A stretch of DNA of 64,000 nt from Psammoneis japonica (taxonomy: Eukaryota), in contig QPGO01000029.1 of the NCBI GenBank assembly GCA_008632985.1, forward strand, positions 1-64,000, read 5' to 3'. Each line of letters begins with the position of its first letter. The first letter of the stretch is position 1. The notes under the pieces are model-generated. The model was not told the origin of the DNA. It did no database searches and saw only the letters and a list, made by a program, of their open reading frames with translations. Positions 3,564 to 64,000 of this stretch are shown piece by piece. A program made the translations under genes and the position numbers.

Positions 3564-4866
3564 ATGGAAAAGTCATTTCTTACTCAGACAGAATGGTCTC
3601 GCTGGTTGACAGAAAAAGCGACGGATGCGTGGGAAGATATTACGTTCAATTCCGACTCTTTTGAGAACAACAAAGCCCCCGAGCCTGTCGTGTCCTTCTC
3701 AATCGGTGCCGGGTTGGCGGGAGTTACAGCCATTTGGTGGTTTCTGCGGTGGAAGAAGCTCGTAGAGTCGGATGAGTTGACCAAGCAGCTTAGAAGTTGT
3801 GAAGGGAATATGTTTGTTTGGTCGTTGGCTCCCTCTATTCGGGCCCTGAGCACCAACGATTCGTAGCTTTCNNNNNNNNNNNNNNNNNNNNNNNNNNNNN
3901 NNNNNNNNNNNNNNNNNNNNNNNNNNNNNNNNNNNNNNNNNNNNNNNNNNNNNNNNNNNNNNNNNNNNNNNNNNNNNNNNNNNNNNNNNNNNNNNNNNNN
4001 NNNNNNNNNNNNNNNNNNNNNNNNNNNNNNNNNNNNNNNNNNNNNNNNNNNNNNNNNNNNNNNNNNNNNNNNNNNNNNNNNNNNNNNNNNNNNNNNNNNN
4101 NNNNNNNNNNNNNNNNNNNNNNNNNNNNNNNNNNNNNNNNNNNNNNNNNNNNNNNNNNNNNNNNNNNNNNNNNNNNNNNNNNNNNNNNNNNNNNNNNNNN
4201 NNNNNNNNNNNNNNNNNNNNNNNNNNNNNNNNNNNNNNNNNNNNNNNNNNNNNNNNNNNNNNNNNNNNNNNNNNNNNNNNNNNNNNNNNNNNNNNNNNNN
4301 NNNNNNNNNNNNNNNNNNNNNNNNNNNNNNNNNNNNNNNNNNNNNNNNNNNNNNNNNNNNNNNNNNNNNNNNNNNNNNNNNNNNNNNNNNNNNNNNNNNN
4401 NNATTCGTGATTTTCAGTTTTGGGGGAAAGTATGGCGGGTGACTTCCTCATCCTCCAAGGCGCAGTTTGAATATACACACAGCGCCAAACAAAAGGAACA
4501 GTCCATTCCGTTGCAAAAGGGGGATCCCGTAGTTTGGCTTCGGTTTGGTATGACCTCTTTTGTCAATGGATTCGGGTACCACACTTTGAATCACTTGATC
4601 CCCATCTTCGCTGCTTCACAAGCTACTGTTGCCATGGTGTAATCTCAGTCGCTCTCGGCATTGGATATCTCTTCAGTCTCGACAAGTCGTCGGGTGGCTC
4701 GGATGTACGCCTTGTCATGGACGATGGAGTGAAGCAAGACAAAAAGGATGCATCTGATAAAAGCGACGGTGAGAATGGAAAGTCTGCCAGCAGTAAGGAC
4801 GCTGCGACACTGATCAAGGAGGCACAAGAGCAGGCGCGGCTTGTTGGAAAAAGAGATGGCCGAGAA
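3564..4866 (+). CDS. Fragmentary hypothetical membrane protein interrupted by assembly gaps
   Basis: Coding-like ORF pieces (3564-3866 with a TM segment; ~4403-4866) flank an N-run; no family recognised. Confidence 0.3.
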
Positions 4867-6114
4867 NNNNNNNNNNNNNNNNNNNNNNNNNNNNNNNNNN
4901 NNNNNNNNNNNNNNNNNNNNNNNNNNNNNNNNNNNNNNNNNNNNNNNNNNNNNNNNNNNNNNNNNNNNNNNNNNNNNNNNNNNNNNNNNNNNNNNNNNNN
5001 NNNNNNNNNNNNNNNNNNNNNNNNNNNNNNNNNNNNNNNNNNNNNNNNNNNNNNNNNNNNNNNNNNNNNNNNNNNNNNNNNNNNNNNNNNNNNNNNNNNN
5101 NNNNNNNNNNNNNNNNNNNNNNNNNNNNNNNNNNNNNNNNNNNNNNNNNNNNNNNNNNNNNNNNNNNNNNNNNNNNNNNNNNNNNNNNNNNNNNNNNNNN
5201 NNNNNNNNNNNNNNNNNNNNNNNNNNNNNNNNNNNNNNNNNNNNNNNNNNNNNNNNNNNNNNNNNNNNNNNNNNNNNNNNNNNNNNNNNNNNNNNNNNNN
5301 NNNNNNNNNNNNNNNNNNNNNNNNNNNNNNNNNNNNNNNNNNNNNNNNNNNNNNNNNNNNNNNNNNNNNNNNNNNNNNNNNNNNNNNNNNNNNNNNNTAC
5401 TAGCTAGAGAGAGCCTCTGTTGANNNNNNNNNNNNNNNNNNNNNNNNNNNNNNNNNNNNNNNNNNNNNNNNNNNNNNNNNNNNNNNNNNNNNNNNNNNNN
5501 NNNNNNNNNNNNNNNNNNNNNNNNNNNNNNNNNNNNNNNNNNNNNNNNNNNNNNNNNNNNNNNNNNNNNNNNNNNNNNNNNNNNNNNNNNNNNNNNNNNN
5601 NNNNNNNNNNNNNNNNNNNNNNNNNNNNNNNNNNNNNNNNNNNNNNNNNNNNNNNNNNNNNNNNNNNNNNNNNNNNNNNNNNNNNNNNNNNNNNNNNNNN
5701 NNNNNNNNNNNNNNNNNNNNNNNNNNNNNNNNNNNNNNNNNNNNNNNNNNNNNNNNNNNNNNNNNNNNNNNNNNNNNNNNNNNNNNNNNNNNNNNNNNNN
5801 NNNNNNNNNNNNNNNNNNNNNNNNNNNNNNNNNNNNNNNNNNNNNNNNNNNNNNNNNNNNNNNNNNNNNNNNNNNNNNNNNNNNNNNNNNNNNNNNNNNN
5901 NNNNNNNNNNNNNNNNNNNNNNNNNNNNNNNNNNNNNNNNNNNNNNNNNNNNNNNNNNNNNNNNNNNNNNNNNNNNNNNNNNNNNNNNNNNNNNNNNNNN
6001 NNNNNNNNNNNNNNNNNNNNNNNNNNNNNNNNNNNNNNNNNNNNNNNNNNNNNNNNNNNNNNNNNNNNNNNNNNNNNNNNNNNNNNNNNNNNNNNNNNNN
6101 NNNNNNNNNNNNNN
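3872..6114. other. Assembly gaps (N runs 3872-4402, 4867-5397, 5424-6114)
   Basis: Runs of n. Confidence 0.98.
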
Positions 6115-21719: not shown

Positions 21720-22802
21720 ATGGTTCAGGGAATGGCATTTCTCTCCAAAAAGCGGTTCAACCCGCAGAACCTCTACAACCAAAAGGCGGTATGGGAAGCA
21801 CGACAGGAAAAAGAACACGAGGCCAAGCGATTGCAGGAACGAGCCGAACAGTTGAAACGAGAACGAGATGACGAAGAGTTGGCTCGTGCTCGTGGTGGTG
21901 CTCGGGGAGGCAATGAGGCGGCGTTGCGTTTCATGTATGGACCACCACCGGGATTGCCGGCAGAGGAAAAAAAGAAGAGCAATTCGTCAAGCGAAATTGC
22001 TGCGGATGTTTCTGAAAAGAAAGCTGCTGAAACACATGATCGTAATGACTTGACTCGGCGTCAACCTGGCGATGATGACGCCGCCGCTGAGTTTCGTCGA
22101 ATGCTTGCAGCAGCCAGTGAGCCTGCTGAAGACGGTTCAGAAGTTGCGGATCAAGCAAACTCAGCCAATCAATCAAACAGTATCAGCGGAGCTGCTCTTG
22201 CGGGCACAACAATTGAAGCTGCAGCCAAGGGCAACGAGAGTCTTTCGGCGTTGGAAAAGGCGGTTGGGCGCAAAGATGCCAACAAGAGTCTCACATTGGA
22301 GGAACAAATTGCGAGGTTTCCTCAGCTGAAAAATGCGCCAATGGCAAGGGGTATGAATGCGACGAATGTCAATGTCAATTTCAAACCGCTAGGGACGCAG
22401 TTGCGGCACATTCGATGCATGGCTTGTGGAGTCTGGGGTCATAGTCGAGGAGATCGTGAATGTGAAAAGAGTGGATGGAATCCATTTGCTTCAACGTCAA
22501 CGGCCAAACCGGTTGCAGTCAATAACGAATTGCAGCAAGAAAGTAAAAGTGGTTTGATCCCAGATAAAAAGTCAAAGAGAGACCGGAGCCGCGACAGGGA
22601 GAATGACAGTAGCAGCACTGATAGCAGTGGCGAAGAGGCATATCGACGCCGAAGAAAGCGCGAGAAAAAGCACAAATCATCTTCTCGTCGCCGCAGACGC
22701 GAAGAAAGGCGACGACGAAGATCGCGGTCCCCTTCCGAAGAACGCAAGTCCCGAAAGAAGTCTCATAAGCGCAGAAGAAAGCATTCGTCCAGAGACGACT
22801 AG
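21720..22802 (+). CDS. CIR1: CIR1/Cwc25-like spliceosomal/corepressor protein (Cir_N domain, Zn knuckle, RS/K-rich tail)
   Basis: FLSKKRFNPQNLYNQKAVWEA; LRFMYGPPPG; FPQLKNAP; IRCMACGVWGHSRGDREC. Confidence 0.82.
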   Translation: MVQGMAFLSKKRFNPQNLYNQKAVWEARQEKEHEAKRLQERAEQLKRERDDEELARARGGARGGNEAALRFMYGPPPGLPAEEKKKSNSSSEIAADVSEKKAAETHDRNDLTRRQPGDDDAAAEFRRMLAAASEPAEDGSEVADQANSANQSNSISGAALAGTTIEAAAKGNESLSALEKAVGRKDANKSLTLEEQIARFPQLKNAPMARGMNATNVNVNFKPLGTQLRHIRCMACGVWGHSRGDRECEKSGWNPFASTSTAKPVAVNNELQQESKSGLIPDKKSKRDRSRDRENDSSSTDSSGEEAYRRRRKREKKHKSSSRRRRREERRRRRSRSPSEERKSRKKSHKRRRKHSSRDD

Positions 22803-22951: not shown

Positions 22952-24349
22952 TTAATCATAACTTACAAAGAATGCCCCATTGTCGCCAAAGTCAATAAAG
23001 CTAAGAAACCTGCCGGATTCCAATAACCCTTGAATGAGCTTGTCAAGATTCTCTGAAATACCGCCCCACCACTTGGCAATGACAAAGCAGGAGAGATCAG
23101 AGTTAGAACAATGAAATACATTTCGGAGATTGCAGTACAGCGACGTGAGCAAACAGACTCACCATGCGCCCGTTCTCCACCTTTACAAACCACTCCCCTT
23201 TCGGACCTAGCGTTACACAAACCAAATCAGGTCGATCTGCACGGTCTTCGAGCTTGTCCTTTAGTTCCTCTGGAACGCCCCTTCCATTGTACTCCCAAGA
23301 CCCATCATGGAACACTACGAAAAAGGAATCAAAGCTAGAACCAAACGCTATAGATCTTGGTCTTGGGTGCTGCTTTTTCACTTCGCGCTTTCCCTGTTTA
23401 AGTGGTCGTGCAGATGAGGACCCCATTGTCACTTTTCTCATACACTTGTCAAAGGCTTTCGGTCCCTTCCACTCGGCCGTGCCATCGTTGAACCCAATAT
23501 AATAGCGATCTCGGCTTCCCAACGAAACATAGCAAGGTCTGCTTTCGATTGACTGAGCACTGCCCTTGGCTTTTAATTTGCTAAAGAGAGCCTTTGGGAT
23601 ACTTGGTGTAAATGCGACACCCCCCTTTCCATACAAAAAGACCGTGCCTCGGCCATTGGTTGCCACGCACGTGACTGGCTTTTCTTGACGGTGGATGTCA
23701 GCCAAACACAGCTCGACGTGCTTCATACTCTCGGGTGGCAAGGCGAATTCAAACTCAATCCCCGACCTGTCTCCTTCTTCTTTATTGACTTGTTCATCTT
23801 TTTCTTGCAAGGCTTCCAAATGAGACTCTAGTCTCTCCTTTTCTCCCATGAGTATGCACACACCCACCTCTGCCAGTTCCATCTTGGAACGTCGTGCCCG
23901 AGTTGCCTCGTCCGTGTTTTCGGAAGAACCATCGTTTCCAGTCGCTGACAAGTACGCAGCATCTACCAGTCTATTGTCAATAGTCATGAGTCTAGGTGGA
24001 TCTTCCAATGTGTGCTGCACCACATCAAGTGATGTCACGTTCCGTCGAAATGTCTACAGAACAAACACATCACGTATTTCATCAACAAAAGAGTTGAGAC
24101 GAAACGACCGAATCGGAATACAGCAACACATAAAAAATCTTTTACCTGTCGAACAACTCCATTCAACACACGGCATGTTGCAATCGTTCCCGAGTCAATG
24201 TAGATGTTGATACGGGCGGGTTCTGCGCCATCCGTTACCAAGAACGAAAGCACCATTGGCAACTCTGCAGGAACCTCGCGACATCCTGGGACCACTTTTG
24301 CAACCTTTTTGATTGCGTCAGGATCTAACTTTATTTGCGATACAGACAT
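22952..24349 (-). CDS. Hypothetical multi-exon protein with repeated beta-strand motifs (VSLGSRDRYYIGFNDG / IAFGSSFDSFFVVFHDG / VTLGPKGEWFVK)
   Basis: ORFs 24035-24349, 23103-24038 and a final exon near 22952-23080 separated by GT..AG introns. Confidence 0.65.
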
Positions 24350-24499
24350 GGTAAGTATCTCAATGGAAAGAACTGCAAGAGCGGCGGGAAGTGAAGCGTG
24401 TCATGGCGAGGAATGGAGTGAGGGAGTTTGTTCCTTTTTTTCTTGTCTCCTTCTCGCTCAATTTTCAATGATCCTCTAAAGACATGAAGGCACTTTATT

Positions 24500-27229
24500 C
24501 AGAAATACCGTGAATCCATTCTCTGCACCGTATAATAAACATATGTATTTATATCCCGTCTTTTTGATGATTTTCATTTTGATTTACTCCAAATCGATTT
24601 TTTGTCGAATTGCTCAGAAAGTGCATCATTTCACTGCTCTGACGTTGCAAAAAAGCAAAGAAATGAGCCCTTTTGGATCGGGAAGACGTTGTGTGGTTGC
24701 AGTGCTGCACACATCCAGAGCCGCACTTGAAGAAGCAACCAAACAAGTTGCAATCGACCCGCATGTTTCACCGACAGGTTCTTGTTTCGTCATCCAGAAA
24801 AGTGGGCGGCAAACATGTGCATTTGTGCCCCGTCTTTTTGATGATTTTCATTTTGATTTACTTGCTCCAGAGTCGATTTTTGTCAAATTGCTCAGAAAGT
24901 GCATCATTTCACTGCTCTGACGTTGCAAAAACGCAAAGAAATGAACCCTTTTGGATCGGGAAGACGTGTTGTGTGGTTGCAGTGCTGCACACGTCCAGAG
25001 CCGCACTTGAAGAAGCAACCAAACAAGTTGCAATCGACCCGCATGTTTCACCCACAGGTTCTTGTTTCGTCATCCAGAAAAGTGGGCGGCAAACACATGC
25101 ATTTATGTCCCATCTTTTTGATGATTTTCATTTTGATTTACTCGCTCCAGAGTCGATTTTTGTCAAATTGCTCAGAAAGTGCATCATTTCACTGCTCTGA
25201 CGTTGCAAAAACGCAAAGAAATGAACCCTTTTGGATCGGGAAGACGCGTTGTGTGGTTGCAGTGCTGCACACGTCCAGAGCTGCACTTGAAGAAGCAACC
25301 AAACAAGTTGCAATCGACCCACATGTTTCGCCCACAGGTTCTTGTTTCGTCATCCAGAAAAGTGGGCGGCAAACACGCGCATTTGTGCCCCGTCTTTTTG
25401 ATGATTTTCATTTTGATTTGCTTGCTCCAGAGTCGATTTTTGTCAAGTTGCTCAGAAAGTGCATCATTTCACTGCTCTGACGTTGCAAAAACGCAAAGAA
25501 ATGAACCCTTTTGGATCGGGAAGACGCGTTGTGTGGTTGCAGTGCTGCACAGGTCCAGAGCCGCACTTGAAGAAGCAACCAAACAAGTTGCAATCGACCC
25601 ACATGTTTCGCCCACAGGTTCTTGTTTCGTCATCCAGAAAAGTGGGCGGCAAACATGTGCATTTGTGCCCCGTCTTTTTGATGATTTTCATTTTGATTTG
25701 CTTGCTCCAGAGTCGATTTTTGTCAAGTTGCTCAGAAAGTGCATCATTTCACTGCTCTGACGTTGCAAAAACGCAAAGAAATGAACCCTTTTGGATCGGG
25801 AAGACGCATTGTGTGGTTGCAGTGCTGCACAGGTCCAGAGCCGCACTTGAAGAAGCAACCAAACAAGTTGCAATCGACCCACATGTTTCGCCCACAGGTT
25901 CTTGTTTCGTCATCCAGAAAAGTGGGCGGTGCCTGGTGCTGCCTGGGCCAGCTCCTGCTGCAGCTCTGGCCTTCAGCGCAGCCACCGCCACTTGGAGATC
26001 ATCGCCCCCAATGAGCTTTTTCAGTCGCTTGCCATGGCAGGACCACCACGCCTGTCTTTGTTGCAGTGTTGATGGTGTGTGAAAGGCAGACAGTGCACAA
26101 AATTCTTCCAGCACCACTGTTGCCACAACAAGCACCTCACATCAAAGAAGAAGAGCCACCATCTGTGAGCAGGCACATTGTGCATTTTGCCAAGCAGGTG
26201 CTGGCAAGTTTCTCATCTTGTTTGGAGCCCCCTTTTTTGTTCCAGATGACAGAGGCAGGCAGCTAACATGGGGGGCAAAGTGCACAAAAAAAACTTTCTT
26301 TGGCGGTGACTTGTGCAGAAGAAGCAGAGCAGAGAGTTGCACCCTCCACAGCAAACTGGGGGGAGGCACTTCAAGGGGATGACACAAAGCATGAGGGTCA
26401 TCACAGCAGATGACCAATTGTCCTTGAGAGACCAAAGAAAACATTGTCAAAATGAGATCTGACATTTTGTGAAAAGTGGCCCCCCTGTCACATCCCCTTG
26501 TTGTCGTCATTGCGCACCAGCACTGCAGTGGTGGGTCATGCACAAAACTGCCCCTTGGCTGCGTTGTCATTGTCAGACAATGCAAAGCACACAAGGATCA
26601 CAGCAGATGACCAATCATCCTTGAGACTGAAGAAAATGTTGTCAATGAGATCCAACATTTTGTGAAAAGAGACCCCTTTCACATCCTCACCTTTGTTGTC
26701 GCCATTGTCAGTGCTGCTGTTGCTTGCATTGTTGTCATGGAATGCTGTGGCACAGCATCATTGTCACATTCTGTTACAGCAGTGATGGGATTTGCAATGA
26801 GGGCAACACTGTTTTCTGCATTCTGCCATCTCAAACAACAAACAATGAGTGGTGCCTGTTGGCTGTGAGTCCCAACTCAAAAGAGAGCCTTCCAATGACA
26901 GGGCAGTTCAAATCATCAACATCATGTTTGTTGATGGGGCAGTGCTCAGCTCGAAATGTGACATGGCATCACATCATTTTGTGCTGTTGACATCTGAGCC
27001 AATTGGGACGAAGAAGGAAGCAACCAAGCGCCGCTGGTGTCCATGCATCGCAGCATCTTTAAAAAGCTGCGAGTGCATCCAATGCGGCATCGGGATCTTC
27101 CTCCAATGGAGCCTAGAATGCCACTAATGCGTCATCAAAGAGTTTGGGTGAGGCATTGCACGTTGCACGGAAACTGCAAAATACACTCAACGGAAAAGAC
27201 CAGAGCAGCATTCCAGTGCCGTATTTCTG
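24500..27229. mobile_element. Putative non-autonomous or degenerate element containing the 280-bp array; TA-depleted interior
   Basis: Composition shift bounded by inverted CAGAAATAC (24500-24508) / GTATTTCTG (27221-27229); no TSD seen; internal direct repeat 26400-26512 / 26597-26707. Confidence 0.45.
24537..25929 (+). repeat. Tandem array of five ~280-bp units (starts 24537, 24811, 25091, 25371, 25651)
   Basis: Unit aaacaYRYGYatttRtRYccYRtctttttgatga...catccagaaaagtgggcgg repeated at 280-nt spacing (first unit 274 nt). Confidence 0.97.
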
Positions 27230-30805: not shown

Positions 30806-31199
30806 TTTGTGAAATCGGACTTTGAAAAAAGAGTAGAGACGAAGTGATCTGAGGGTTGCTTTGTCCTTCTTGCTTTCACCAGTCAGCTAAATTTAAAAGA
30901 ATGATGATGTGACACCCACGATGCTTTTTACGGAGATTTGGAGTGTCTTCGCTTTCCAGAGCATTCGTTTGAAGTTGAGTTCATTCATTAGACCCTCCTG
31001 TAGGGCCCTAGACTGACTTCATCACCGATCATTGTCATCATTGTCGCTTATTCCTTCCGCAGGCCGCGGGCCGCGGACAAAGTACAGACGGGAATTCACT
31101 TTTAACTTGCTCGCTTGCTTGCTTGGCTTGTTGCTTGTTGCTTGTTGCCTTGCTTGCTTTGAACTCCTTCCTTTGGGGGGACGTTGGGCGAGCACTTAG

Positions 31200-32400
31200 A
31201 GCAGACGATAGCTGCAAACACCAATGAATGCACTTGCACACCATGGAAATTGTCAACTTGTCATGTTGCACTGCCTGGCTTCATGTGAAGAGTTCTCCCC
31301 AAGTCGTCCGGTGGCGGCTGGCTTCTTTGCACCACACATCATGGAACAACTGCTTGTGTTGTTGTTTCCATGTTTCTTCCTGCATGTTCAAACTTTTTTT
31401 CTGTTCCTGCCTCCTCTCTCTGCCAGCACCAGCACATGTTCGTCAATGCCATTCAACAATGTGGAGAAACTGTCGCACACAAAGCTCGGGCCTCCTTCTG
31501 AGGGCGGTCTCTCTCTCTCTCTCTCTCTCTCAGCAAGTGCCACACAGCAGCAGTGCTGCTGGGAGTCAAGAAGATGTGTGCATAGAGTGGCACCAGGTTT
31601 TGTCACTTCTTGTTTGTAACTTGCAACACTGGCGTGCACTCAACAAAAACGTTCACATGCTTCATTTTGTCCATGTCTGCTGTGTTGGTCCGTGTGCAGA
31701 CACGTGATGGCCAAGGAGCTGCTGCTCACTTGTGAGCACCAAATGCAGGAGTTAGCTCATTGGTCTTTGTGGTGATCATGATGTGCTCAGATTTTTCCTG
31801 AGAGTGGACTTGCAGCCAGATGAATTTGGCAAATGCAGGTGTGCGTTGCAGGCACACTGGTCAGTTGCAAAGGCAAATTGCGATGCTCTCTGGCACACTG
31901 TTCCTGCACACCAGACCTTTTAAATCATTTACAAATCAAAATCAAGATGAAATTGACAGGTCAGAAAAAAATGTTCGAGTTGGCAGGAGGCTGGTCAGTG
32001 CCAGAGGGAAAGAATGTCAGGGTGAACAGCCAGTGAACAGAGCCAGTGCTCAACCCTTGAGTTCCCAATGCTTGAACTTTTAGATCTACAGAATCTTTGG
32101 AATCACAAAGAAATTGACAGGTTAGAAAGAATTATTTGGGTCACAGTTGCAGGAGGCTGACCAAATCCAAGCGCCAGAGGGAAAGAATGTTGGAGAGTGA
32201 ACAGCCAGTGTGTCCTTGAGTTCCCCATCCTTGCCTGGACAAGAAAGACAATCAGCTCCAAAGCCCTCGGCACACTGCACTCTCAGGTTGTCGCAACATG
32301 ATCAGTGGCTTGGCGGTTGGGGCAAAGAAGTCTCGAGCATTGGCACACTGAAAGCAGACAAGAAGGGGCTGTTTGGTCAGATCCCACACGCGCCTGCAAA
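31200..32400. repeat. TA/CG-depleted degenerate repeat island with (CT)n microsatellite (~31509-31531) and internal duplicate ~31948-32075 / ~32110-32232
   Basis: TG/CA-rich, Tyr-poor ORFs in all frames; duplicated gaaattgacaggtYagaaa...gccagagggaaagaatgt...gtgaacagccagtg. Confidence 0.6.
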
Positions 32401-33449
32401 TCGCTCCAAAGGATACACTATGTTTGCGGTGGGGAAGAATGTCACCAGTTTGATCTTTTGAACTTATGAAACAATTGCAGCTTCGACGCAGCTTGATTTG
32501 AGAGCTTCTTAAGTCTCGACAAAAGAAAGGGCACCCTGCTCAAGTGTTGGGCGTCGGCGCGTCCATGGTAAATTTCTGGATGGAGGGCGCCTAGGAAGAA
32601 GCGCTCCAACATGCTGTAGATGCAAAAAGGCGGTGTCTGGCAGAAGCGTTACGGTGTTCGCAAGGTAACATCTGATGGAGACTTGCTTAGCTGTTTCTTT
32701 TCTACTTGTCTTCTTGCCTCTTGCTCTTGCGTGGTGTGGTTCGTGGTCGCGTGTTAGTGGTCGCGTTTTTGTGTTTTAAGTCGTGATTACGAGGTGAAGT
32801 ACGAGGAACGATGCCTGAGGAAATGGTCACCTACTCTTGATCACTTCACTACCGTCGTCTTTTTGATGGAAGACGACAAATGCGTGTGCCAACCAACGCA
32901 TCTTAGTGTTTTCCGCAGAAACCGGCGAATTGATTCACTACTTGTGCTCTGGCTCGACCTACATTGAAACTGCCTTAGACCATGATGGCCATACCATCAT
33001 CTTCTTGGACTGTGCCTCCTGATATGAATCACACAACAGGATTCAGTCGTTCGATGTTCGAAATGCCGAAACGTCCTGGAGCAAGGACATTATAAAATTG
33101 TTTTTGAAAATCTTTCTGCAATTTGTAACAAACGCCGTCTACCTAAAGAACGAACACTTTTGAGTGTGTCGTCGTCGAATTGGTGTTTGCACTCTAATAT
33201 CGTGATGCACGCAGGGATGCATAGAGATAGTTGTTATGCGTGGAGATTCGTACAAGCCGATGGGAGCAATAGTAGCTATTCGCACGAAGTAATACTCTAC
33301 TCACATCACCCTACGTTTCTGTTCGAGGATTGCTTGTATAGGTGAAATTAACAATCTGTACTGTAGTTGAGGACTGCTTGTACGTGAATTTAAAAAGCTG
33401 TAGTTGAGAAAGCACACCCCGCAAGAGGTCGGACCAGCTAAAATCCAGT

Positions 33450-48125: not shown

Positions 48126-51100
48126 ATGCACTCCCACCACAGAGGCGGCAGCAACCCGATGAGTTCCTCGCAGCAATTGCAGGAGTTGCAGAAAATGCAG
48201 CGCATGCAACAGCAAATGCAAGCGCAATTACAACAGGCTTCGAGTCAGCAGATGTTAGGATCAAACGGAGGCATGGGGGGTCTGCCAGGCTTATCGCAGA
48301 TGTCTTCCCAGATGGGCTTTGGGAATCAAGGATGGTCTGACCCCAGTAATCAGGGATCCGGAGGATCGCAGCAACATCGCAATTCCATGACAGGGATGAA
48401 CAGTTTTATGATGCAACAGAACAATCCCTCTCAGTCAATGTATTGGAACCCTATGCAGAACAAAGGCTCGGCAGGGTCATCGAACGATGGGGGCATGTCG
48501 AGCTCTTCTATGAAGAATGTTGGAGGAAGCATGATGGATACTTCTATGCAGGGGTTACAAAAAATGGGGGTCGGCGGAAATCAGCAGAATCATCAAATGA
48601 GAGGTCAGATGAACCAGCAAGGTTTTGGAGGAGGCTCCGGTCACGGGCAGGCCGATCTCTCAAACGCAATGTTAGCTTCAGCTAATGCTGTGCTAAATGC
48701 GGGGGGAAACAACGTTTCGGGGGGGATGGGGGGAAATGCTGGAATGATTTCATCAGCGAGCAATAGTAGCGCCCAGCTTCTTCTTCAGCAACAAAACATG
48801 ATTGAGGATCTCAAGCGTCAACTCGAACAACAGCAAAGAAAATCGGGAAGCTCGAATAGCAATGGCATTCCTCAGGCCAGTAGTATGGAGCGTCGCTCGT
48901 CTTCGGGTTCCACCCAGAGTAGTCTCCTTCCCGGTCAACAGCAAGCCTCGATGATGCAAAACCGTGGGTCTTCTTCTTCTTCTCAGATGCTTCAACAGAT
49001 GCGCTCCGGTATGATGCAAGACCAAAGTATGTCGGGTTTAACGGATATGCAGCAGCAACGTCGCAGATCGTCGTTGGGTTCTACAGACCAGAATATGTTC
49101 TCGCTAATGGGATCGCAGAACCCGGGACAACAGATGCGTCGAACAAGCAGCACGGGTGGAAATAGTTTCATGGGTAACGTCTTTGGTGGCCCGGGAGGGG
49201 GAATGGGCGGGACCGGCAATGGCGCAATGCTTGGTGCTAGTATGCCAGGAATGTCACAGCAGCTCCAGCTTTCGCAGATGGCGGGTCTCAGCAACGACCA
49301 GTTCCGGGCTCAACAGCAACTCCTCGGTACAACGGGTATGACTCCAATGAGCCAAGACATGAACGTCCTTAACAAAACAAAGCAACTTCTAATGGGACAA
49401 GACGATAAAAGCTCCGATTCCAAGATAAGTAAAGGAAAGGGTGTGGCAGGTAGTAAAGGCAAAGGCCGCCGAAAGAGTTCGTCAAGCAAATCGAAGAAAG
49501 GCTCCGACAAAGCTGGCGAATCTACCCAGGGTCAACAGTCGTACCTTGATGGTACCTTTGCTGGGGGGTGGCAGTCCAATGTTGACCTCCCTGATCGCCG
49601 ACAGATTATATTCAATATTGTCAAGGTTATCGAGCAGATGAGACCCGATGCGAACAAAATGTCACAAAAGTGAGTGTGTCTCTGTTCTGCTGTTTTCTAT
49701 TTGCGTCGAGTTGTTGGCGGTGGCTTTTTGCTCACTCATATCTCATTGTGCTCTATCAACTCAGGCTTCCAATGATGGCAAAGAGACTCGAGGAGCATCT
49801 TTACCGATCGGCTCAGACGAAAGAAGAATACTTGGACCAGTCGACGTTGAAAAAGCGACTCCAAATGATTGCTCATGGGTTGGAAGTTCATAGGTCAACA
49901 TCATCCGGCTCGAATAAGACGTCCTCGAAAGGCGTTCCTGACATAAAAACAAGCGACAAGCTCTCTTTGGATCAGAAAACACACGGAGACCACGAGTACA
50001 CGAGTGAACAGCAGCTGCAGCAGCAGCTTCAACAACTGGAACAGCTGCAGAAACTCCAAGAACAGCAGAAGTTGTCAGGAGGCCAAGCTATTAACCCGAT
50101 GGGCATGGTCCCTTCTCGTGGCGGCGCTAATCACGATGATTTCTTGAGACAGGGGGGTGTTCCCAATGTGTCCCTTGATAAGCTTCGTCCACAGGACAGC
50201 GTTCGAGACGGCCACGTGCAGTTTTCCGAGTCTCAAGCGCGAGGGGGGTCGAGCAATGCAGGGATTCTGAAGACTGACAGCGCGAAGTACCAAGATTCAA
50301 AGTCCGCCCAGAAAAAGAAAGTGATTCGACAACAGCAGCAAAGGCTTCTTTTGTTGAGGCACGCAAGTAAGTGCACCGCTGGTTCGTCTTGTACGACAAA
50401 GTACTGTGCACAGATGGTTTCTCTTTGGAAACATATGAAGAAATGCAGGGACAAAAAGTGTAAAACGCCTCACTGCTTAAGCAGTCGTTGTGTTCTCAAC
50501 CATTACCGCATATGCAAGGACGAAAAGAAGACGTCAACTTGTGAGGTTTGTGCTCCAGTCATGAAACAAATAAAGCTCCAAAATGAGCAGTCTGATCTAG
50601 AATCACCCCTGGATGTGTTTTCAAGAGATCCAACCGGAGATGCTCAACCCGAAGAAGAAACTCTATCAAGCTCAGCATCAACCCTTAAGCAAGATAACCT
50701 TACTGTCGCCGCCCAGCAAAAGCGTAAACAACTCGAGGAGCTTCAAGCAGCTCAGCAAAAGCTGCAACAGCAGCAACTTCTTTTAAAGCAGCTTCAACAG
50801 CAACAGGCGCAGCTACTGGAACAACAGAGACAGCTTCAGCAACAACAGCAACACGTGCTTCCACAGACGCCACAAGGCCAGCAATTGCAACAGCAAGAAA
50901 TGCTATTGCAGCAGCTACAGCAGCAGTTTCAGCAACAGCAATTACTTCTACAACAAGAAGTCCTTCGCAAGTCACAGAATTCCGAAAATAGCCAGATATC
51001 GAGCTCCGCCTCTCACGGCGGCGAATCTGGAAAGTCGAAGAAGCGAAGAGGGAGTAAGAAAGCCCTTGCAACCGGCAAAGGTAGTCGGAAGCGGTCGGGT

Positions 51101-54100
51101 AAAGGAAAAAGTTTGGGCGCCATGGACACGGCAGCATCGGAAGTCAATGAAGAAACTTCCACTCGCGACTCAGCAGAGTCATCGAAGAAGCGTTCTGCCG
51201 GCGGCGAAACGGACGAGTCTCAGCCAAAGCTCGTAAAGGCCGAGCCAGACGTCTTAGAAAAGCCGCAGGAAGGACAGTTGCCAGGTGGTGAGACCGCAGA
51301 GAACGCGTCACCTCAGAAGAAAGTCTTGCAACAGGGGACCGAGGAGCACAACACTGCTCTGATACCTTCAATGACGGTAGAAGCCATTGAACGACATTTG
51401 GAATCCCTCAACAATAGCTTGCACTTGACTCCGCGGACGATTGCTCAGAAATGCGCGCCTGTCCTCAACACTCTTCTCGAGGATCCTTTCGGATGGGTGT
51501 TTCGAGACCCCGTCGACCCAGTAGTACTTGGATTGCCGGATTATTTTGACGTTGTCAAACACCCGATGCATCTTGCCCTTGTCGCGGAAAGGCTCGAAAT
51601 TTGTGCCTACAAAGACATGGAATCGTTTGCCAGTGATACGAAGCTTGTATTTGAAAACGCTATCTTGTATAATGGGGATGACAGTGAAGTTGGTTCGATG
51701 GCGCAGAGTATGCTCAATCGCTTTGAGAAGGAATTCGGCGCTGTACTGAAAGGTATGCTCATCGTTGTTCCCTGACTGCTTATTGTGTTATACTCTATTC
51801 TAAGTTCTCGTCTTGTTGCGTGGAAAGCTATTGAAGCTGAGGGGCAAATTCTGAAGAAGAAAGAAGATTCATGCTCGCTGTGTGGCTCTCAACGTCGCCT
51901 TTTCGAGCCAACAGTTCTCTACTGTAGCGGCGCTTGTGGGATGCAAAAGATTCGTCGCAACGCGTCATATTACACGGATCAATTGAAGCTCAATCACTGG
52001 TGCAGCCCATGTTTTGCCTTGCTGGAAGATGAGGATCCGATCGTACTTGATGATGGGAAGGAGATTCGAAAGAGTGAGCTACAAAAGCTGAAGAATGATG
52101 CGCTACCAGAGGAAGCCTGGGTTCAGTGCGATGACTGTCACAGTTGGGTTCACCAGATTTGTGCTCTTTTCAACGGACGAAAGAACAAACTGGATGCTAC
52201 GTACACGTGCCCAAAGTGTCACATCGGAAAAGTTGAGCAAGGGGAAGGAGTCAAGCCGGAGCAGATCATGAAATGTGCCAGGGATTTACCGCATTGCAAA
52301 ATGAGTTTGGCCATTGAAGAAGGACTGCATGCTGAATTGGAGAGAGCTTACAAAGCGCGGGCATTGGAGATGGGAGTCAATGTTGACGAGGTTGAAAAGG
52401 CGGATGGTCTAACAGTAAGAGTTGTTTCAAATATGGAGAAAACTCATTATGTTCGAGAAGAGGTGAGTGGTGGTAGTCGATGTCGTTAGCTTTGCTCCCC
52501 CCCACCCCCTACCAGCGACTCATTGCTTCTTTCCGCGCTCGCACTCTTTGTATGCTCATAGATGTGTGCTAGATACGCTAAGAGTGGCTGCCCATCGGAA
52601 TTTCCTTTGCGATCGAAGTGCATCGCATTGTTTCAGACTGTATGTGGAGTCGATACGCTCCTATTCGGCCTCTACGTGTACGAGTATGGACAGTCATGTC
52701 CTGCTCCAAACCGAAGGCGCGTATACATATCATACCTAGATTCTGTGAACTATTTCGAGCCCAAAGCCTACAGAACAATTACGTACCACGCCATCCTTAT
52801 CGAATACCTTCGATATGTGAAAGCCCGAGGATTCCATTCAGCGCACATTTGGAGTTGCCCGCCTTCGCCTGGTGATGATTACATCTTTTACTCTCATCCT
52901 TCGGAACAGTTGATTCCTCGTGACGAGATGCTTCGCGCGTGGTACCACAGTATGCTGGACAAGGCCAAAGGCAAGGGCATCGTTTTACAGACCCGCACCC
53001 TGTACGACGAATATTTCAAGAATGGAGGAATGGATGCTACGGTGGGACCTGCAATTGATCCCACTAGCCTTCCCTATTTCGAAGGTGACTACATTCCCGG
53101 AGAGATAGAAAACATTATCAAAGAACTCAACGAACAAGAAGACGAGAAAAGGAAGGACGGAGCTGCCAACAAAAAGACCGGCATGAAGGTAGGCACAAGG
53201 TCAAACCCGGGAGAACTCATCAGTTTTGGCCAAGATAAGGTGATGATGAAGCTCGCCCAAGCAATAAGTAATATGCGACAGAATTTCATGGTCGTTCACC
53301 TACGCTCCAGGGCGTTCGCAGCTGCCGTCGAAAAAGGCGAGGATGTATCTAACTGGATAGACGAGGCAGACGAAGATGTGCAGACCCCAAGTAAGAAAAT
53401 TAGGGCAAGTGACGATGAAGCTACAACCCCTGCCGTTGCTGACGAAAACAAAAGCGTTGAAAAGGCTGGCATGAACGGAGTTGGAGCCGTCTCTCACGCC
53501 TCCAAAGATGCCGACAACAAAGGCCTTGGTACAGCAGCCGTGCAGAGAGAAGGGGAAGAATTCGCTTTAGGTGATGTAGGTTTGAGCAACGACGTGGCTG
53601 GTATGTCCGAGGATGGAAAAGAAACGGATCGATCATCCGCTGAAGCTCCTGAAGCCACCAACATCCAAGATGGCGAGCCCGTCGTGAAAAGTGACCCTGT
53701 GATCGAGAATGGCGACCCGAGGTTTGATGCAACGTCCGGAGCGATCAAGGACGAGCCCCTCGATGTAAAAATGGAGGATGTCACCAAATGCAACCCTGCA
53801 CGTATGCCACTTGCTGGTTCTACCGCAGACGGTGAGGCCTTGGATGCCCTCAAGGTCGACGCCCGAGGCACGCCGCTGGAATCGGATTCCGCTTTGCAAA
53901 CCGATATGAATGACGACGGGATGTCTCAGAAGATTCCCCCCAACGGCGATGGCGCAAGAATTGTCAAAAAGGAAACCGAAGACGCAAGAGACGGAGGCGC
54001 AGATGAACCCAGTCCTGGTACCAGCGACGATCCACTCCCGGGTGCTGGGGCCGAAGAGAAAGCTTCTGAGAAGCTGTCTGCTGAAGCGGATGACACAGCC

Positions 54101-54982
54101 ATGGATCTAGAGCCCGTCGACGTGGCTAGCATTGGAAACATGCTTCCAGAACAAGAATTTACGCCCCCATCAACTGAAAATAGGGAATCAATGTCTTCGA
54201 AGCGCAGCTTTGACGAAATCGAATCGACAGATCCTGTTAAACGCGAGCCTGTTGCTTCCACAGTGGACGAAGACGAGCCGATCGAAAACGAGATGTTTGA
54301 ATCTCGGCAGCAGTTCTTGAACTATTGCCAGACAAATCATTTCCAGTTCGATGAACTGCGGCGTGCCAAGCACACAACCATGATGATTCTGTTCCAGCTC
54401 CACAACCCAAATGCACCCAAGTTTTTGCAGCAGTGCGGTTCTTGCTACCGCGAAATCACGCATGGCATACGTTATCACTGTACCAGTTGCTCGAATTTCG
54501 ATCTTTGCCAGGATTGCTATGAACCTGTTATTACAGGCTTGTGGGCTCAGAGAGACGCGCGTTTCGCTCATGACAAGAGCCACTCGTTTACTCCCATCAA
54601 CATGGAGGCACCTCTCGACACTCAAAAGAGCAGGGAAGAGCGTGCTCAAGCCCTCAAGGTGCATCTTGAGCTTTTGGCGCATGCCGGTAGCTGCGAGGGT
54701 CCTCCAGATTGCACGCTAAAGAACTGTGAGAAAATGAAGAGTATGTTTGAGCACGTAAAGTCATGTGAAGTCACGTACAAGAAGGGCTGCAAGAAGTGTG
54801 CTAGGCTTTTGTCGTTGATAACAATGCACGCTCGCCAGTGTACGACACGCGGCTCGTGTCCAATTCCGTTCTGCGATAGGACCAGGGAGAGAAACCGGCG
54901 TCTGCGCCAGCAACAACAGCAAATGGACGACAGACGGCGAAACGCTCAGAACGAACTTTATCGTGAAAGGGGTTCCGCGTAG
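48126..54982 (+). CDS. CBP/p300-type histone acetyltransferase: Q/M/G-rich N-terminus, KIX-like, TAZ, bromodomain, PHD, KAT11 HAT, ZZ, TAZ2; introns 49670-49764, 51753-51827, 52463-52561
   Basis: LPMMAKRLEEHLYRSA; QQQRLLLLRHASKC; WVFRDPVDPVVLGLPDYFDVVKHPM; WVQCDDCHSWVHQICALF; RRVYISYLDSV; IWSCPPSPGDDYIF; LPYFEGDY; HFQFDELRRAKHTT; CSNFDLC. Confidence 0.96.
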
Positions 54983-55562
54983 GACGGTTGTTCGGGTGGG
55001 AATAAATATATTTTAATAATGCTGCTTAGAGTTAAGAAGATGTTGGTGCTTATCCTCTACAGGAGAACAAAATGTCATCGGTGCCTCAATGGAAAAGTTT
55101 CACGGTCTCACCTTTTGCCCACGACGAGCCAAAGCGCACTATTTTGTCCGAAATATTTTACTATGCTCCCGTTGCAATCATCTCTTTCAGGACACTGTGA
55201 CGGGTGCTGGACAACCAATGTCACTTAGGCTCTCTACTCTCTCTAGTAGCTAGCTCTAGCTCTAGAGAGTAGAGCACTACTGTAGAGCAAAAAAGTGTGC
55301 GACCAGTTCCGATTACCTCGTCCCGCCCGCCCGAAAACTGACCATTTGTGTCTGTCTGTCTCACCGGGTGTGGTTCATCCATCGGACACCAAAAAGATCG
55401 CTGGCAACCTCCGTCATTCAACATCTTGAATGGCAGCATGGATGGAAACAATCCCCATGCAAAAATGCATGGGAAAGTGTGCGTGTGCAAAAATGTTGAA
55501 CCAGCAAGTCAATGTCACCAAAAGGGAATCCCACAAGGCTTCCTGTGCTGCTGGCTGCACTT

Positions 55563-55800
55563 GCCACCCCGCAAAAGAACTCTGGAACAACAAATTTGTG
55601 TGGAAACAGTGCCAGGGCCTCAGCGGAAATGCCAAAAAAGTCTGGAACATGGAACATCAAGAAACTGCATGGGATCCATCTTAGATTCAGTGCCAGGGAG
55701 GTCAAAAATCACAAAATTCTGGACTTTTTTTGCATTTCTGCTGGGGCCCTGGCACTGCTTCTGCGCAAATTTGTCATTCCAGAATTTTTTGAATGGTGGC
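55563..55800. repeat. Imperfect inverted repeat (~75-85-bp arms, 55563-55647 / 55717-55800)
   Basis: ctctggaacaacaaatttgtgtggaaacagtgccagggcctcagcggaaatgccaaaaaagtctggaa vs reverse complement ttctggaatgacaaatttgcgcagaagcagtgccagggccccagcagaaatgcaaaaaaagtccagaa. Confidence 0.85.
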
Positions 55801-56276
55801 TTGCCCTGACCACTTTGGCAGCCATGGTTTGCCCAGAAGTTGTTGACAAACTTCAAACTTGCAATGTGAAACAGGTGCCTTCTGACGCCACAAAGCAATT
55901 TGTGCAAAACAGATGGTTCGCTCTAAAGCCCAAAGAGTGAGAGGTGGGCTGAAAGGCAAGTGAGATCGGCGACGATCCACTCCAAATGCAATGAGTCACC
56001 AAGTCCACCATGCAAAGATCTTCACCATCTTCTTTTCAACACACCCAGGTTCTCAATTTTCCTGTGACCCAGATGCTCCAGCAAAAAAAAGCAAGAGAAG
56101 CATGCAAGGAGCGACACAGACAATCTCGCCATGTGGGAGTCCACACTGTGCTCCATGCTGCTCTGTCACTCTTTTGTTTCCCATCCTCTTCTCATGGCCA
56201 GCGCACTTCCAGCAGCCAGCTCAGTGTGATCTCTGGTTTCTCTGTTGGCAGCTGCACAAGCTGCGCACATCTGCTC

Positions 56277-56721
56277 TGCAACACACAGCTGCCAACAAGA
56301 GTCAATGCATCACGGCGACGTGTCACAGCCTTTAAATGTCACAAAGGGCGTGACAAAATGACCTTTTGTCTGCATGCATGCTGCACTGTGAATTCACAGC
56401 GGAGTGGTTCATCGCAACCATCAGGCAGGAGGCCAGGGGTTCGAAACCCTGAGTGGGAGTTGTCTGCAGCAACGTTGATCACTGTCGAACGCGCAAAACT
56501 CTGTGCAGTTCTGCACGTTCCTTCGCACGTGCCCACACTGTTCCGCCAAAACCGTGCAGTGTCAGTGCACGTTAGCAAAGAGCCGCATGGACGCGTGACA
56601 CATGGGGAGGAGTGCAACACACAGCTGCTGATGAGAGTTGATGCATCACAGCGACGTGTTGCAGCCTTTAAATGTCACAAAGGGCGTGACAAAATGACCT
56701 TTTGTCTGCGTGCATGCTGCA
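56277..56721 (+). repeat. 109-bp direct repeat (56277-56385 and 56613-56721)
   Basis: Ungapped match differing at six YR dinucleotides only. Confidence 0.92.
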
Positions 56722-58888
56722 GCTCACTTCAAGCCAGGACAGCTTGTTTCTTTCCCAACATCATGGCTCAAGTCTCTGCCAGCTTTGTTTTGAGTGTGCA
56801 CAGCAGGTGCAAAAAACATCCACAGCTCTTCACTGACTTCTGACAGGAAGACAGCAACAGCTGGTGGCATGCCCATCAGCAAGTGGCGATGACCCAGCTG
56901 CAAACCCCACACTCTGCCACCATTCTCATTCACCTTGATGCACTTCAGTGACAAGAAGCATGGTGCCTGACAAGCAGTGGCAGGAGCCGCAATCATGACA
57001 GTGCTCCTTTTTTCTCTTTTGCTGCAATCTGACCCACTGTGCTGGCAAAAGCAGAGCTGTGCTTGGCAAAAAGCCACTGTTTTGCAACTGTCAGTGCAGT
57101 TGGCACAGCTGCTTTGTGGTGTGAGGTGGCAGCATTTCTGTCAGTGGCGGCATGCTGTCTCTCATCTCATGGGGGTCCAGACCATCATTTCCCCCAAAGT
57201 GCCAATTTTTAGAAAGTGCGGGCAGCATCTAAAAATGTTGAATGGAAAGCTGACTTTCATCCATTGAGGAAGAATGTTTGGGAGTGAATTGTCTTTTGTG
57301 GTTGCACACATTTTGCATTTTGTGAATGACTGCTGCCAAAAGTGCTTGCTTGGAGAGCGTGCAGTGCCACAGCCCACACATGCCAAGGGGCAGCAGCACC
57401 TGCCTGCGCATGAAACAGCTGCTGTTTTCTTCTGTGTTTGAAAGTGCAGCCAGGTGCACACATCCTCATGGTGCCACTGCATGTTGTGTCCAGAAAGTTC
57501 TCCAAATGAGAAACATGTCAGCGGTGATGTGTGCCCAGTTTTCTGGGGGTTTTGCTGCACAGTGTGTGAGAGAGACACCTTTTTTGGTCAAACTTCAAAC
57601 AATGTGGCACATTTTTGGGTGTGCAACAGTTTGGTTTTGTGGGCACATGGAAATGGTGGCCTTGTCTTGCCTGTGCCCAGGTTGCTGCTTTTGATCTTTC
57701 AGAAGTGGTGTCTTTGGATCATGAGAAAAGTCTTTTTCTTTTTTTGTGGTGCACCAGCAGGGTTTCTGATGCATTGATGACAATGCGCTCAAATGGCAAC
57801 TCATGGTGGAGTCAACACATGCTTGGCTTTCTCAGCATTGAAGAGGGAATTTTGGTGTCAGGGGCAGAGCAATGTCAACAACACCAGAGTGGCTGACAGC
57901 GCTGACTGGGACAGCAACTTGGCTCAAAAACCAACATGTCTCTTGAAAAAGAGGCATTGACAGCTGGAGGAAATTGCTCAAAAGTGCACAATCTTGCCCC
58001 AACCAACAGAGCTGCACTTCAATGCAGCTCTGTTGTGCTGTGATTTGACCTTTGTCAAGGGCACAAATGGAGTCCTCAATCTTTGGGGTTTCAACAACAA
58101 CGCACACAATGCCCCCAAGTGGCAAAGAGGCAATCATCCATTGAATTGGCTGCTGCAAATGACAAGTGTTGTTGAGATGCTGCCTTTGACTCTGTCCTTG
58201 AGCCCTCACTTCTTGAGAGCTCAGTTGGAGCTGTCATCTGTCTTAAAGTGATTTTGTTCCAAAAGCAATTTTGAACTCACATCAACAAAACAGCCAGAAG
58301 TTGAATCTGCGGTGCTGCATCCTGACATTCCAGTCTGCCAAGGTTTTGAAAAGCAAGGTCCAGACCAAGATTCCAAGCTTGGAACTTGCAACAAGTGTTG
58401 CCATTGTGGGTGCTGAGGGCATTGGAAGTGAACCTTGTGCCACAAAAGATGGAGTGCAAACACCTCCATTTTTTGAAATCTTGTTCAGCATTGGGTGTCA
58501 TTCATCACAGGAAAAAAAGAAAGGGAACAATGGAGCACACTAAAAGTGGCAAAGAAAAGGACCATGTTCTCACAGCTAAAAGCCACATTGTTTGTTGTTG
58601 TGGCAATGGCAAATCACACAAGTTGCCACACCGGTGCCATTTTCTTTTTGACCAATCTGAAACACAAGTTCACAGAAATCATGGCAACACCAATTTCTGT
58701 GGTCTGGATCTGCTGCAGTTGCCACTGCAGCTTCATCACAGAAAAAACCTGTTATTGTCCCAATCTCTGCCAGCCACACTTCTTTCCAAGTTTCCAAGAG
58801 CCAAACTTGTCTGTTTTTGTGTGTGTGAATTCTTGCAAAAATGATCAAAGGCATCTCAAAGCATTCTTCATTCCTCATTGATGCAAGC

Positions 58889-59040
58889 CTGATTGCAGCA
58901 ATCAGGGCATTGCTCCAGAAACCAGTGAGCTTCTTTTTTCCAACAGCTTCCACCCATCCTCAGCTGATTGCTGCAATCAGGGCATGGCTCCAGAAGCCAG
59001 CAAGTTTTTCTTTTTCCAACAGTTTCCATTCCTCCTCAGC
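58889..59040 (+). repeat. ~76-bp tandem duplication
   Basis: ctgattgcWgcaatcagggcatKgctccagaaRccagYRag...ttccaacagYttcca...tcctcagc twice. Confidence 0.8.
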
Positions 59041-63400: not shown

Positions 63401-64000
63401 CTGTCAGATTGGCTCCAGTCACAACTGGACCAACCCTTTGGCAAGGATGACATTTGTCAGTTGTTTGTGCATCTGAAGCTGTTTTTTGTCATGCACTGCT
63501 GCCCCTGTGGAAGTCTGGTTTTCTGCAGGATGTTGCTGGTGCAAAGAGCATTCTTCTCTCCAGGTTGTTGGTTGTGTTGCCACCTGGGATGACCTGTGCT
63601 GTGTGGTGTCAGATGCTTGGCACCCAAACAACCTCCTCCGGGAGTGCAGAGATGTTGACTTCAACACCCTGCAAGGACACCCTTTGGAGTGGGAGAAAAA
63701 AAGGGCCTCAATGGGGACCACATGATGCAAAAAACCACAGCAGCTCTTCTCCATTTTGATGGAGACATGGCATTGTGAGTGGGGTGGGTCAGGGGCCTGC
63801 ACATTGCTGTGCACTTCAAGGTCAACAAGATCATGTCGTTTTTGGAAGGCAAAGTTGATCTTGCTGTCATTTCAACTGTTGGGTGCATCTGCCAAAATGG
63901 TGTTCCGGCTTGTTGTGATGGACACAATGATGTGCAAGAAGAGAACTTCCAAGCTTGTCTTCAGCATGGAAACTGTCTCTCCATTGAGATTGGACCAGAG
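60476..64000 (-). pseudogene. Fossil long coding sequence of unknown function, broken mostly by TGA stops
   Basis: Same-frame ORFs 63045-63233, 62763-63026, 62526-62726 and 62229-62456 each end at TGA; no Tyr, excess His/Cys. Confidence 0.6.

Follow-up and report, generated by a model that had tools for sequence, protein, structure and literature searches.

Transitions at pyrimidine-purine steps in bounded zones of a Psammoneis japonica contig, with a 280-bp tandem array at a zone edge

Targeted transition hypermutation of silent DNA is, to our knowledge, known for cytosine only, in the form of CpG decay through deamination of 5-methylcytosine (5mC), of repeat-induced point mutation (RIP) and of APOBEC footprints. 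RIP changes C to T, mainly at CpA, and creates TpA. Among the adenosine deaminases, ADAR acts on double-stranded RNA and TadA/ADAT on tRNA position 34, in a U-A-C context; we know of enzymes of these types acting on DNA only once engineered, and otherwise on RNA. TpA is also the context of thymine hydroxylation, as in the 5-hydroxymethyluracil (hmU) of dinoflagellates and the base J of kinetoplastids, and 5-formyluracil, a product of further oxidation, mispairs with G to give T-to-C changes; we know of no mutational erasure of TA in dinoflagellates or kinetoplastids. Here we analyzed a 64-kb stretch of Psammoneis japonica DNA (positions 1 to 64,000 of contig QPGO01000029.1, hereafter the window), which carries a tandem array of 280-bp units at 24537-25929 and in which the steps TA and CG have both given way to TG and CA in bounded zones. 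For the TA-loss part of this pattern we know of no counterpart.

A 500-bp dinucleotide profile of the window revealed three zones in which TA and CG were nearly gone and TG/CA stood at 1.7 to 2.1 times expectation: ~25000/26050 to 27000, 31100-32450 (only partly depleted) and 55400 to the window end. The zones and their parts are listed below, with TAs classed by flanking purines (R) and pyrimidines (Y) as RTAY, YTAR or mixed (YTAY/RTAR), and with step frequencies given as observed/expected ratios (o/e).

24556-27181: TA-free zone 1, which holds the array; six TAs left after the last RTAY-type TA (24552), none of them RTAY
26050-27008: CG-free core of zone 1, nested in the TA-free zone; CG o/e 0.13-0.19, TG/CA 1.7-2.1
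26400-26707: local duplication in zone 1, copies 26400-26512 and 26597-26707
31100-32450: partly erased zone; 14 TAs (RTAY 1, mixed 7, YTAR 6), CG o/e 0.3-0.6
55315-64000 (window end): TA-free zone 3, CG-free from ~55413 except for a cluster at ~55900-55999 and the island at 56277-56721
56277-56721: TA-free, CG-normal island in zone 3, flanked by 109-bp direct repeats (56277-56385 and 56613-56721)

In the depleted core (9.0 kb) the o/e was 0.04 for TA, 0.10 for CG, 1.79 for TG and 1.82 for CA, compared to 0.57, 1.00, 1.14 and 1.13 in the remaining 49.5 kb of the window. Ordinary introns and intergenic DNA adjoining the zones are TA-rich, so the zones form a distinct compartment and are not merely unconstrained DNA. 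At each of the three sharp boundaries, the TA-free zone takes in the CG-free zone and extends past it: by ~1.5 kb at the left of zone 1, where CG goes on to 26049; by ~170 bp at its right, where CG is back at 27009 and the first non-YTAR TA lies at 27182; and by ~100 bp at the left of zone 3, where the last TA is at 55314 and CG continues up to 55412. The array is the part of zone 1 that is TA-free yet CG-normal, with a TA o/e near 0 and a CG o/e of ~0.9. Because TA loss reaches past CG loss at each of these boundaries, the two losses are uncoupled, and two processes of different reach fit the pattern better than one. A sequence-only reading made earlier of this DNA had proposed that TA was lost independently of CG. 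In space this is borne out, but CG decay is under way in the array as well, though far from complete: variable positions make up 18 of 39 in CG-capable steps as against 6 of 144 outside pyrimidine-purine (YR) steps.

The loss of CG resembles CpG decay in that CG has become TG/CA in sharply bounded non-genic zones, with the CG deficit of the core matched by a TG/CA excess and YR totals conserved, and in that CG sites are the most variable sites of the array. It differs in that TA is lost too, more completely and over a wider footprint. PMC9998398 reports CG methylation of diatom transposons that depends on DNMT5a, and RID-related DNMT4 genes of unknown function in many diatoms. With fungal RIP the zones have in common that transitions come in a burst, limited to a compartment and specific to certain dinucleotides, by which non-genic DNA is ruined, and that duplicates were each mutated independently. 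The outcome, however, is the reverse: where a RIP footprint shows TpA excess and CpA/TpG deficit, the zones have a TA o/e of 0.04 and TG/CA at 1.8, TpA being destroyed while CpA/TpG pile up. No dependence on repeats is evident here, since the CG-free core of zone 1 is present in read-derived contigs of single-copy depth (55-61) and no dispersed repeats were found among the zones within the window; old, diverged families may exist elsewhere in the genome. A Pfam search for transposon remnants in 22 and then 126 ORFs (open reading frames) of the zones gave no match above cut-offs and two sub-threshold ones at chance level.

The depleted zones were shown to descend from ordinary-looking DNA by in-place transitions at YR steps. 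In each of the 16 flanking contexts, TA, CG, TG and CA add up to nearly the same frequency in core and ordinary DNA, and base composition hardly shifts between the two, as expected of transitions confined to YR steps. The TAs that survive also show a context rule. In 9.6 kb of zone, leaving out the array, 27 TAs remain, distributed as follows, with expectations taken from normal density.

RTAY: 0 observed, 111 expected
YTAY/RTAR (mixed): 7 observed, 193.5 expected
YTAR: 20 observed, 65.2 expected

This order (chi-square p = 3e-13) is repeated in the partly erased zone, with 1, 7 and 6 TAs in the same classes, and the counts fit independent hits on each strand, with a survival of 0.065 for TAY and 0.55 for TAR. 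The products carry the same signature. In the core, YTGY+RCAR amount to 72.4 per kb and YCAY+RTGR to 48.4 per kb, close to the 73.0 and 47.8 predicted if all mixed-class TAs take the favored orientation and CG is split evenly; an even split of TA would predict 63.3 and 57.5 (binomial p = 7.6e-5 for the excess of favored products). Surviving CGs showed no such R/Y order and were found in G/C-rich flanks. TA loss thus was shown to follow the rule A to G in 5'-T-A-Y, which equals T to C in 5'-R-T-A on the other strand; these are the same event, in which either base may be the one mutated.

Four local duplications inside the zones were aligned. Between the two copies at 26400-26512 and 26597-26707, four TG/CA double differences account for 8 of the 10 transitions; the 109-bp pair in zone 3 (56277-56385 and 56613-56721) differs by four CA/TG doubles and two CG/CA changes, with no other substitution; and the adjacent copies 58889-58964 and 58964-59040 differ by one TG/CA double, whereas the pair in the partly erased zone has none. 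The nine doubles in three of the four pairs indicate that the two copies each resolved an ancestral TA or CG on their own, and the near-absence of other substitutions indicates that the YR rate itself was raised.

The combination of A to G, a fixed 5' neighbor and a 3' preference, as seen in the survival of TAY and TAR and in the product asymmetry, matches the footprint expected of an adenine deaminase of the TadA/ADAR kind. As with ADAR, TadA/ADAT and engineered TadA editors, the change is A to G with T/U at -1, and the pyrimidine preference at +1 resembles the native UAC of TadA; unlike theirs, this footprint is one of genomic DNA, affects the two strands symmetrically and stays within zones. 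Thymine modification systems offer a second likeness, TpA being both their context and the step lost here. PMC6313786 states that hmU replaces 12-68% of thymidine in dinoflagellates. Of 15 papers naming both diatoms and hmU, the 10 listed all dealt with dinoflagellates.

The array is the sole strong tandem array in the window (Tandem Repeats Finder [TRF]: period 280, 5.0 copies, 96% matches, score 2504, consensus path without indels), with units head to tail at constant period and high identity, and a 41-nt core of the unit occurs exactly five times in the window but never in 100 shuffles. The array is intergenic, beginning ~190 bp upstream of the ATG (24350) of a minus-strand gene. Its units, as cut for alignment, are listed below.

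24537-24810: unit C1 (274 nt)
24537-24560: start of C1, with four TAs (in ATAT, GTAT, TTAT and ATAT), continuous with the TA-rich flank 24496-24536
24811-25090: unit C2
25091-25370: unit C3
25371-25650: unit C4
25651-25929: unit C5

The unit length of 280 is no multiple of 3, and none of the five ORFs of the array matched Pfam. Across the entire window, scans with Rfam and for tRNAs (ARAGORN) returned 0 and 0 matches; these Pfam and Rfam results show no more than that a match is absent. Inverted repeats within the array were short and of chance size. The array is an ordinary non-coding minisatellite, and what is unusual is its setting. The sequence-only reading had described this array accurately, from its extent and copy number to its quoted unit starts. 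The alignment likewise reproduced its by-eye TA counts of 5, 1, 2, 0 and 0 from C1 to C5, the single site that shows all four states (columns 6-7: TA in C1, TG in C2 and C5, CA in C3, CG in C4), the contrast of gattTAc in C1-C3 with gattTGc in C4-C5 (column 50, A and G) and the approximate count of 11 CGs in C5, the units having 12, 12, 12, 14 and 11. The "gradient" of TA loss that it drew from these counts is not a smooth one. The series is not monotonic, C2 being more erased than C3, and amounts to a step, formed by a single 13-bp cluster on the edge of the zone, plus two further sites: an A/G site and a TA kept in C3. The cluster (24542-24553) adjoins the TA-rich flank and packs four of the five TAs of C1, at places that read TG, CA or CG in the four inner units; the A/G site at column 50 is common to C4 and C5 by descent.

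Substitutions in the array fall at 20 transition and 3 transversion sites, and 16 of the 20 transitions are at YR steps, though these cover only 136 of 280 columns (p = 0.004). Of the five units, C1 diverges most overall; it has three indels and the lowest GC content (0.427, compared to 0.446-0.471 in C2-C5). Neighboring units have states in common, and C4 and C5 differ at only 3 sites. In this the array resembles others under concerted evolution, in which edge units diverge and inner units are homogenised. Edge divergence alone, however, predicts neither four TA/non-TA differences within 13 bp nor a context rule.

Within columns 1-19, four of the six TG/CA sites are TA in C1, compared to none of 46 elsewhere in the unit (p = 5.5e-5). 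The three RTAY sites of the unit were lost in 12 of 12 inner-unit cells, and the two YTAY sites were kept in 3 of 8 (p = 0.049 against RTAY, from units that are not independent). On the unit tree obtained from the rest of the unit, (C1,(C2,(C3,(C4,C5)))), columns 7, 15 and 18 must have changed in parallel, whatever the ancestral state; a hypermutable TA is expected to be lost more than once, but TA is not expected to be gained in parallel in C1 and in C3, deep in a TA-erasing zone. Step counts in the array are equal under a TA, TG or CA root and one higher under a CG root, for five related units with no outgroup. The product asymmetry of TA erasure, 95:50 over the array against a ratio of 1.17 in ordinary DNA, is already seen in each unit (18:10 in one unit, not significant alone), so that most of the TA loss is older than the amplification and the five units do not count as independent witnesses. 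The inner units appear to have lost ~85% of the five TAs and roughly a fifth of the CGs, which, if this direction is right, would make TA loss several-fold faster there. Taken together, these data support, but do not prove, that TA was converted to TG/CA, mainly through evidence from outside the array. The sequence-only reading had also taken TA as the edge-protected ancestral state, and the array as the most direct evidence of direction. The ancestry of TA is the better reading, but it is the depleted zones that decide it, as array steps come out the same under either polarity. The proposed onward change to CG is unsupported, since the CGCG of C4 could equally be ancestral.

We propose that the array is a young non-coding 280-bp minisatellite lying just inside the left edge of a compartment with a local mutational process, which would turn the self-complementary YR steps TpA and CpG into TpG/CpA by transitions. 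The progenitor unit would have been TA-poor already except for its first 18 bp, which would have lain outside the zone edge (~24555). Rightward duplication would then have put copies of this TA-rich start inside the zone, where they would have lost their most susceptible TAs independently, to TG in some units and to CA in another, whereas the start of unit 1 would have kept its TAs because it was outside the zone or part of the neighboring gene's promoter. For the CG part, deamination of 5mC in silent, methylated DNA is the most likely process; it would act more slowly and within a narrower territory, leaving the array TA-free yet still CG-rich. For the TA part we favor, as a guess, deamination of adenine in DNA with a T-A-Y preference like that of TadA; an alternative would be oxidation of thymine at TpA followed by mispairing with G. 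We put the probability of this explanation as a whole, a zone-edge minisatellite with TA and CG converted to TG/CA, at roughly 60%. A stronger proposal is that a territory-bound DNA hypermutation, a mirror image of RIP, erases TpA (A to G at 5'-TAY, or T to C at 5'-RTA) several-fold faster and over a wider territory than CpG decay, through an enzyme so far unrecognised, an adenine deaminase or thymine oxidase that acts on DNA and is linked to silent chromatin; this we hold tentatively, as somewhat more apt to fail than to stand.

Several points weigh against this explanation. Five related units cannot root themselves. The sequence-only reading had suggested aligning all copies of the unit; beyond the five units aligned here, a 26-mer scan of metagenome contigs gave 0 matches and the rest of the window held no copy, leaving nothing to root them with. 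Singleton parsimony within the array makes the C1 TAs at columns 10 and 17 derived. The identical starts of C2 and C5 imply homogenisation, conversion or common descent and not purely independent erasure, and the CGCG of C4 takes two T-to-C changes unless it is ancestral. A 261-nt contig at depth 157 (2.6 times single-copy) combines G at column 50, T at column 64, A at column 77 and C at column 182, a combination absent from the assembly; it represents a unit type missing from the assembled array, and the order and number of inner units are unconfirmed. The inner unit starts are likewise without confirmation among the contigs listed, none of which covers 24706-25375. The mass balance presumes that the ancestor of the zones resembled the rest of the window, which is mostly coding, and the explanation rests on one 64-kb window and one sample.

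Related loci also offered no second case. Of 74 metagenome loci around the DHX8 gene, with DNA identity mostly of 65-78% (up to 83%) even in coding sequence, none aligned to the zones in its flanks. Among the 62 loci of at least 3 kb that were scanned, none had zones like those here, and TA o/e was 0.53-0.88 in 61, similar to the ordinary DNA of the window. Three 500-bp windows with a TA o/e below 0.12 were found, in loci L030, L031 and L058, and in none of them was CG also below 0.6 together with TG/CA above 1.5. This absence is weak evidence because metagenome contigs favor gene-dense DNA; the zone phenomenon may be lineage-specific or tied to DNA seldom captured in such contigs. The exceptional locus L031 (21875 bp, 81% helicase identity) had a TA o/e of 0.39, TG/CA of 1.34 and CG of ~0.9 along its whole length, a milder and uniform TA deficit without zones. 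Top-ranked literature matches contained no report of TA/CG-free, TG/CA-rich zones or of TpA-erasing hypermutation, in diatoms or elsewhere.

The opposite polarity corresponds to ordinary edge decay, in which the inner state (TGTG..CA.. or CGCG) is ancestral and unit 1, having escaped homogenisation, gained TAs by C:G-to-T:A changes, either RIP-like at CpA or by plain deamination. All five differences between C1 and C2 in columns 7-18 are C:G to T:A in that direction, C:G to T:A is the commonest spontaneous change, and the singleton parsimony, divergence and three indels of C1 point the same way. Edge decay would nevertheless require four TA-creating hits in the six candidate sites of 19 bp with none in the 46 elsewhere, as well as the parallel TA gains in C3 discussed above, and would have to account for other changes in C1 that are balanced (columns 75, 135 and 243 towards G/C; 60, 122 and 183 away) and for zones whose TA content is the opposite of a RIP footprint. 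We therefore consider it unlikely.

It is quite unlikely, too, that the TA series lacks positional meaning because more units and two haplotypes were collapsed, or merged as a mosaic, into the consensus of the inner array. The uncovered inner interval, the 261-nt contig and the heterozygosity of the sample, with its half-depth allele pairs, would all be consistent with such an artefact. A contig at single-copy depth (63), however, is identical to the window over 24177-24584, which shows that the TA-rich C1 start is real; both array flanks are confirmed at single-copy depth as well, the contrast of this start with TA-free inner sequence does not depend on unit order, and the zone-level evidence is independent of the array. 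Contigs at depths of 55-63 bridge both edges of zone 1, with half-depth allele pairs present, and together with the coverage of its core this identifies the zones as real single-copy genomic DNA and not an assembly chimera. In favor of our main explanation, contig and window differ in zone 1 by 11 substitutions, all transitions and 10 of them at YR steps, including five cases in which the contig has CG for a TG or CA of the window, one in which it has TA for TG, one CA/TG double (two substitutions) and one change outside YR steps. In the neighboring intron, in contrast, the differences are 5 transversions and 4 transitions. Elsewhere in the contig comparisons, two half-depth contigs (33 and 34) covering 24066-24206 differ by 9 substitutions and 6 gap letters in that intron and represent a strongly diverged allele of a diploid sample. 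At 25949-25950 the window reads CA and the single contig there reads TG at full depth, either a haplotype double difference or an assembly error. The window also has runs of N at 3872-4402, 4867-5397, 5424-6114 and 6780 (531, 531, 691 and 1 bases), which represent either gaps in the assembly or masked sequence.

GC-biased gene conversion during concerted evolution could push the inner units from A/T to G/C, leaving unit 1, which would recombine less, AT-richer. The lower GC of C1 agrees with this, and the inner units of arrays are those that exchange, but outside the TA sites the changes relative to C1 are 5 towards G/C and 7 towards A/T, the zones also lose CG (that is, change G/C to A/T), single-copy DNA is hit as strongly as the array, and a strict TAY rule is not expected from conversion, all of which make it very unlikely. 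That the zones never bore TA or CG, being born so or kept so by selection (as foreign or virus-like DNA, for example) and copied as such into the array, is hardly credible: RNA viruses and some mRNAs do avoid CpG and UpA, with UpG/CpA in excess, but TG/CA doubles between duplicates require a TA or CG ancestor, product counts match the missing TA and CG context by context, some TG/CA sites of the window read CG or TA in contigs, and neither Pfam (0 of 126 zone ORFs above cut-offs) nor Rfam (0 matches) recognised anything.

Two further candidates were rejected. A sequencing-chemistry artefact was dismissed by reasoning, as short-read chemistry reads 5mC, hmU and N6-methyladenine as C, T and A and the zones are found in contigs of normal depth that also show alleles at half depth. 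Passive biased repair of replication errors was rejected as sole cause because duplicates show YR changes and few or no others, which points to a raised forward rate.

The nearest neighbor of the array is the minus-strand gene mentioned above.

23170-24350, minus strand: protein-coding gene without known family, identified from its translations; ATG at 24350, intron 24054-24145 (GT..AG)

This gene had no Pfam match, and a spliced contig of run X2 removes exactly its intron, for which reason that run behaves like RNA. The same run has no contig on the array or in zone 1, which carries no information on expression there. By Pfam, the window encodes PPR, MatE and CIR_N proteins, a DHX8/Prp22 helicase and a CBP/p300-type acetyltransferase. 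The helicase ORF has 85-91% identity to proteins of the diatoms Fragilaria and Seminavis and 93% to further matches, by which the DNA is that of a diatom-like eukaryote. The CBP/p300-like acetyltransferase (TAZ, bromodomain, KAT11, ZZ, TAZ) extends over two long ORFs at 49595-54982 that end ~330 bp before the large depleted zone. In a coding part of the CIR_N-domain ORF (22001-22500), TA o/e was 0.17 with CG at 0.97, which probably reflects codon usage or low complexity rather than the process at work in the zones.

Other observations concern the zones themselves. Dense CTAG/GTAG words at 55226-55290 (ctctctagtagctagctctagctctagagagtagagc), ~30 bp ahead of the final TA on the left border of zone 3, could be a boundary element or chance low complexity, and a (CTTG)n microsatellite (31106-31159, TRF) lies at the left edge of the partly erased zone. 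The island at 56277-56721 carries a tRNA T-arm-like GGTTCGAAACC at ~56440, where ARAGORN calls no tRNA, and may be an insertion resembling a short interspersed element. Without TA, as at 55480-64000, the stops TAA and TAG are impossible and only TGA remains; chance ORFs of 100-280 aa are plentiful on both strands of the depleted zones, and gene finders would over-call there.

The array matters only as a natural experiment, in which one 18-mer is present once outside a zone and four times inside. If the stronger proposal above is true, the array records the erasure of a TA-rich 18-mer that was copied across the edge of the territory, and it is position, not sequence, on which the process depends. 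Concrete, testable predictions follow from the context rule and from the nesting of the TA and CG boundaries. As a mutational force, a process that removes TpA only in certain zones would be new and, if true, would change how dinucleotide biases, the scarcity of stop codons and the inflation of ORFs are read in such genomes, because TGA is the only stop left in the zones. It would also be a sign that diatoms have a DNA-modifying activity not yet recognised, one that might be of use as a natural A:T-to-G:C editor.

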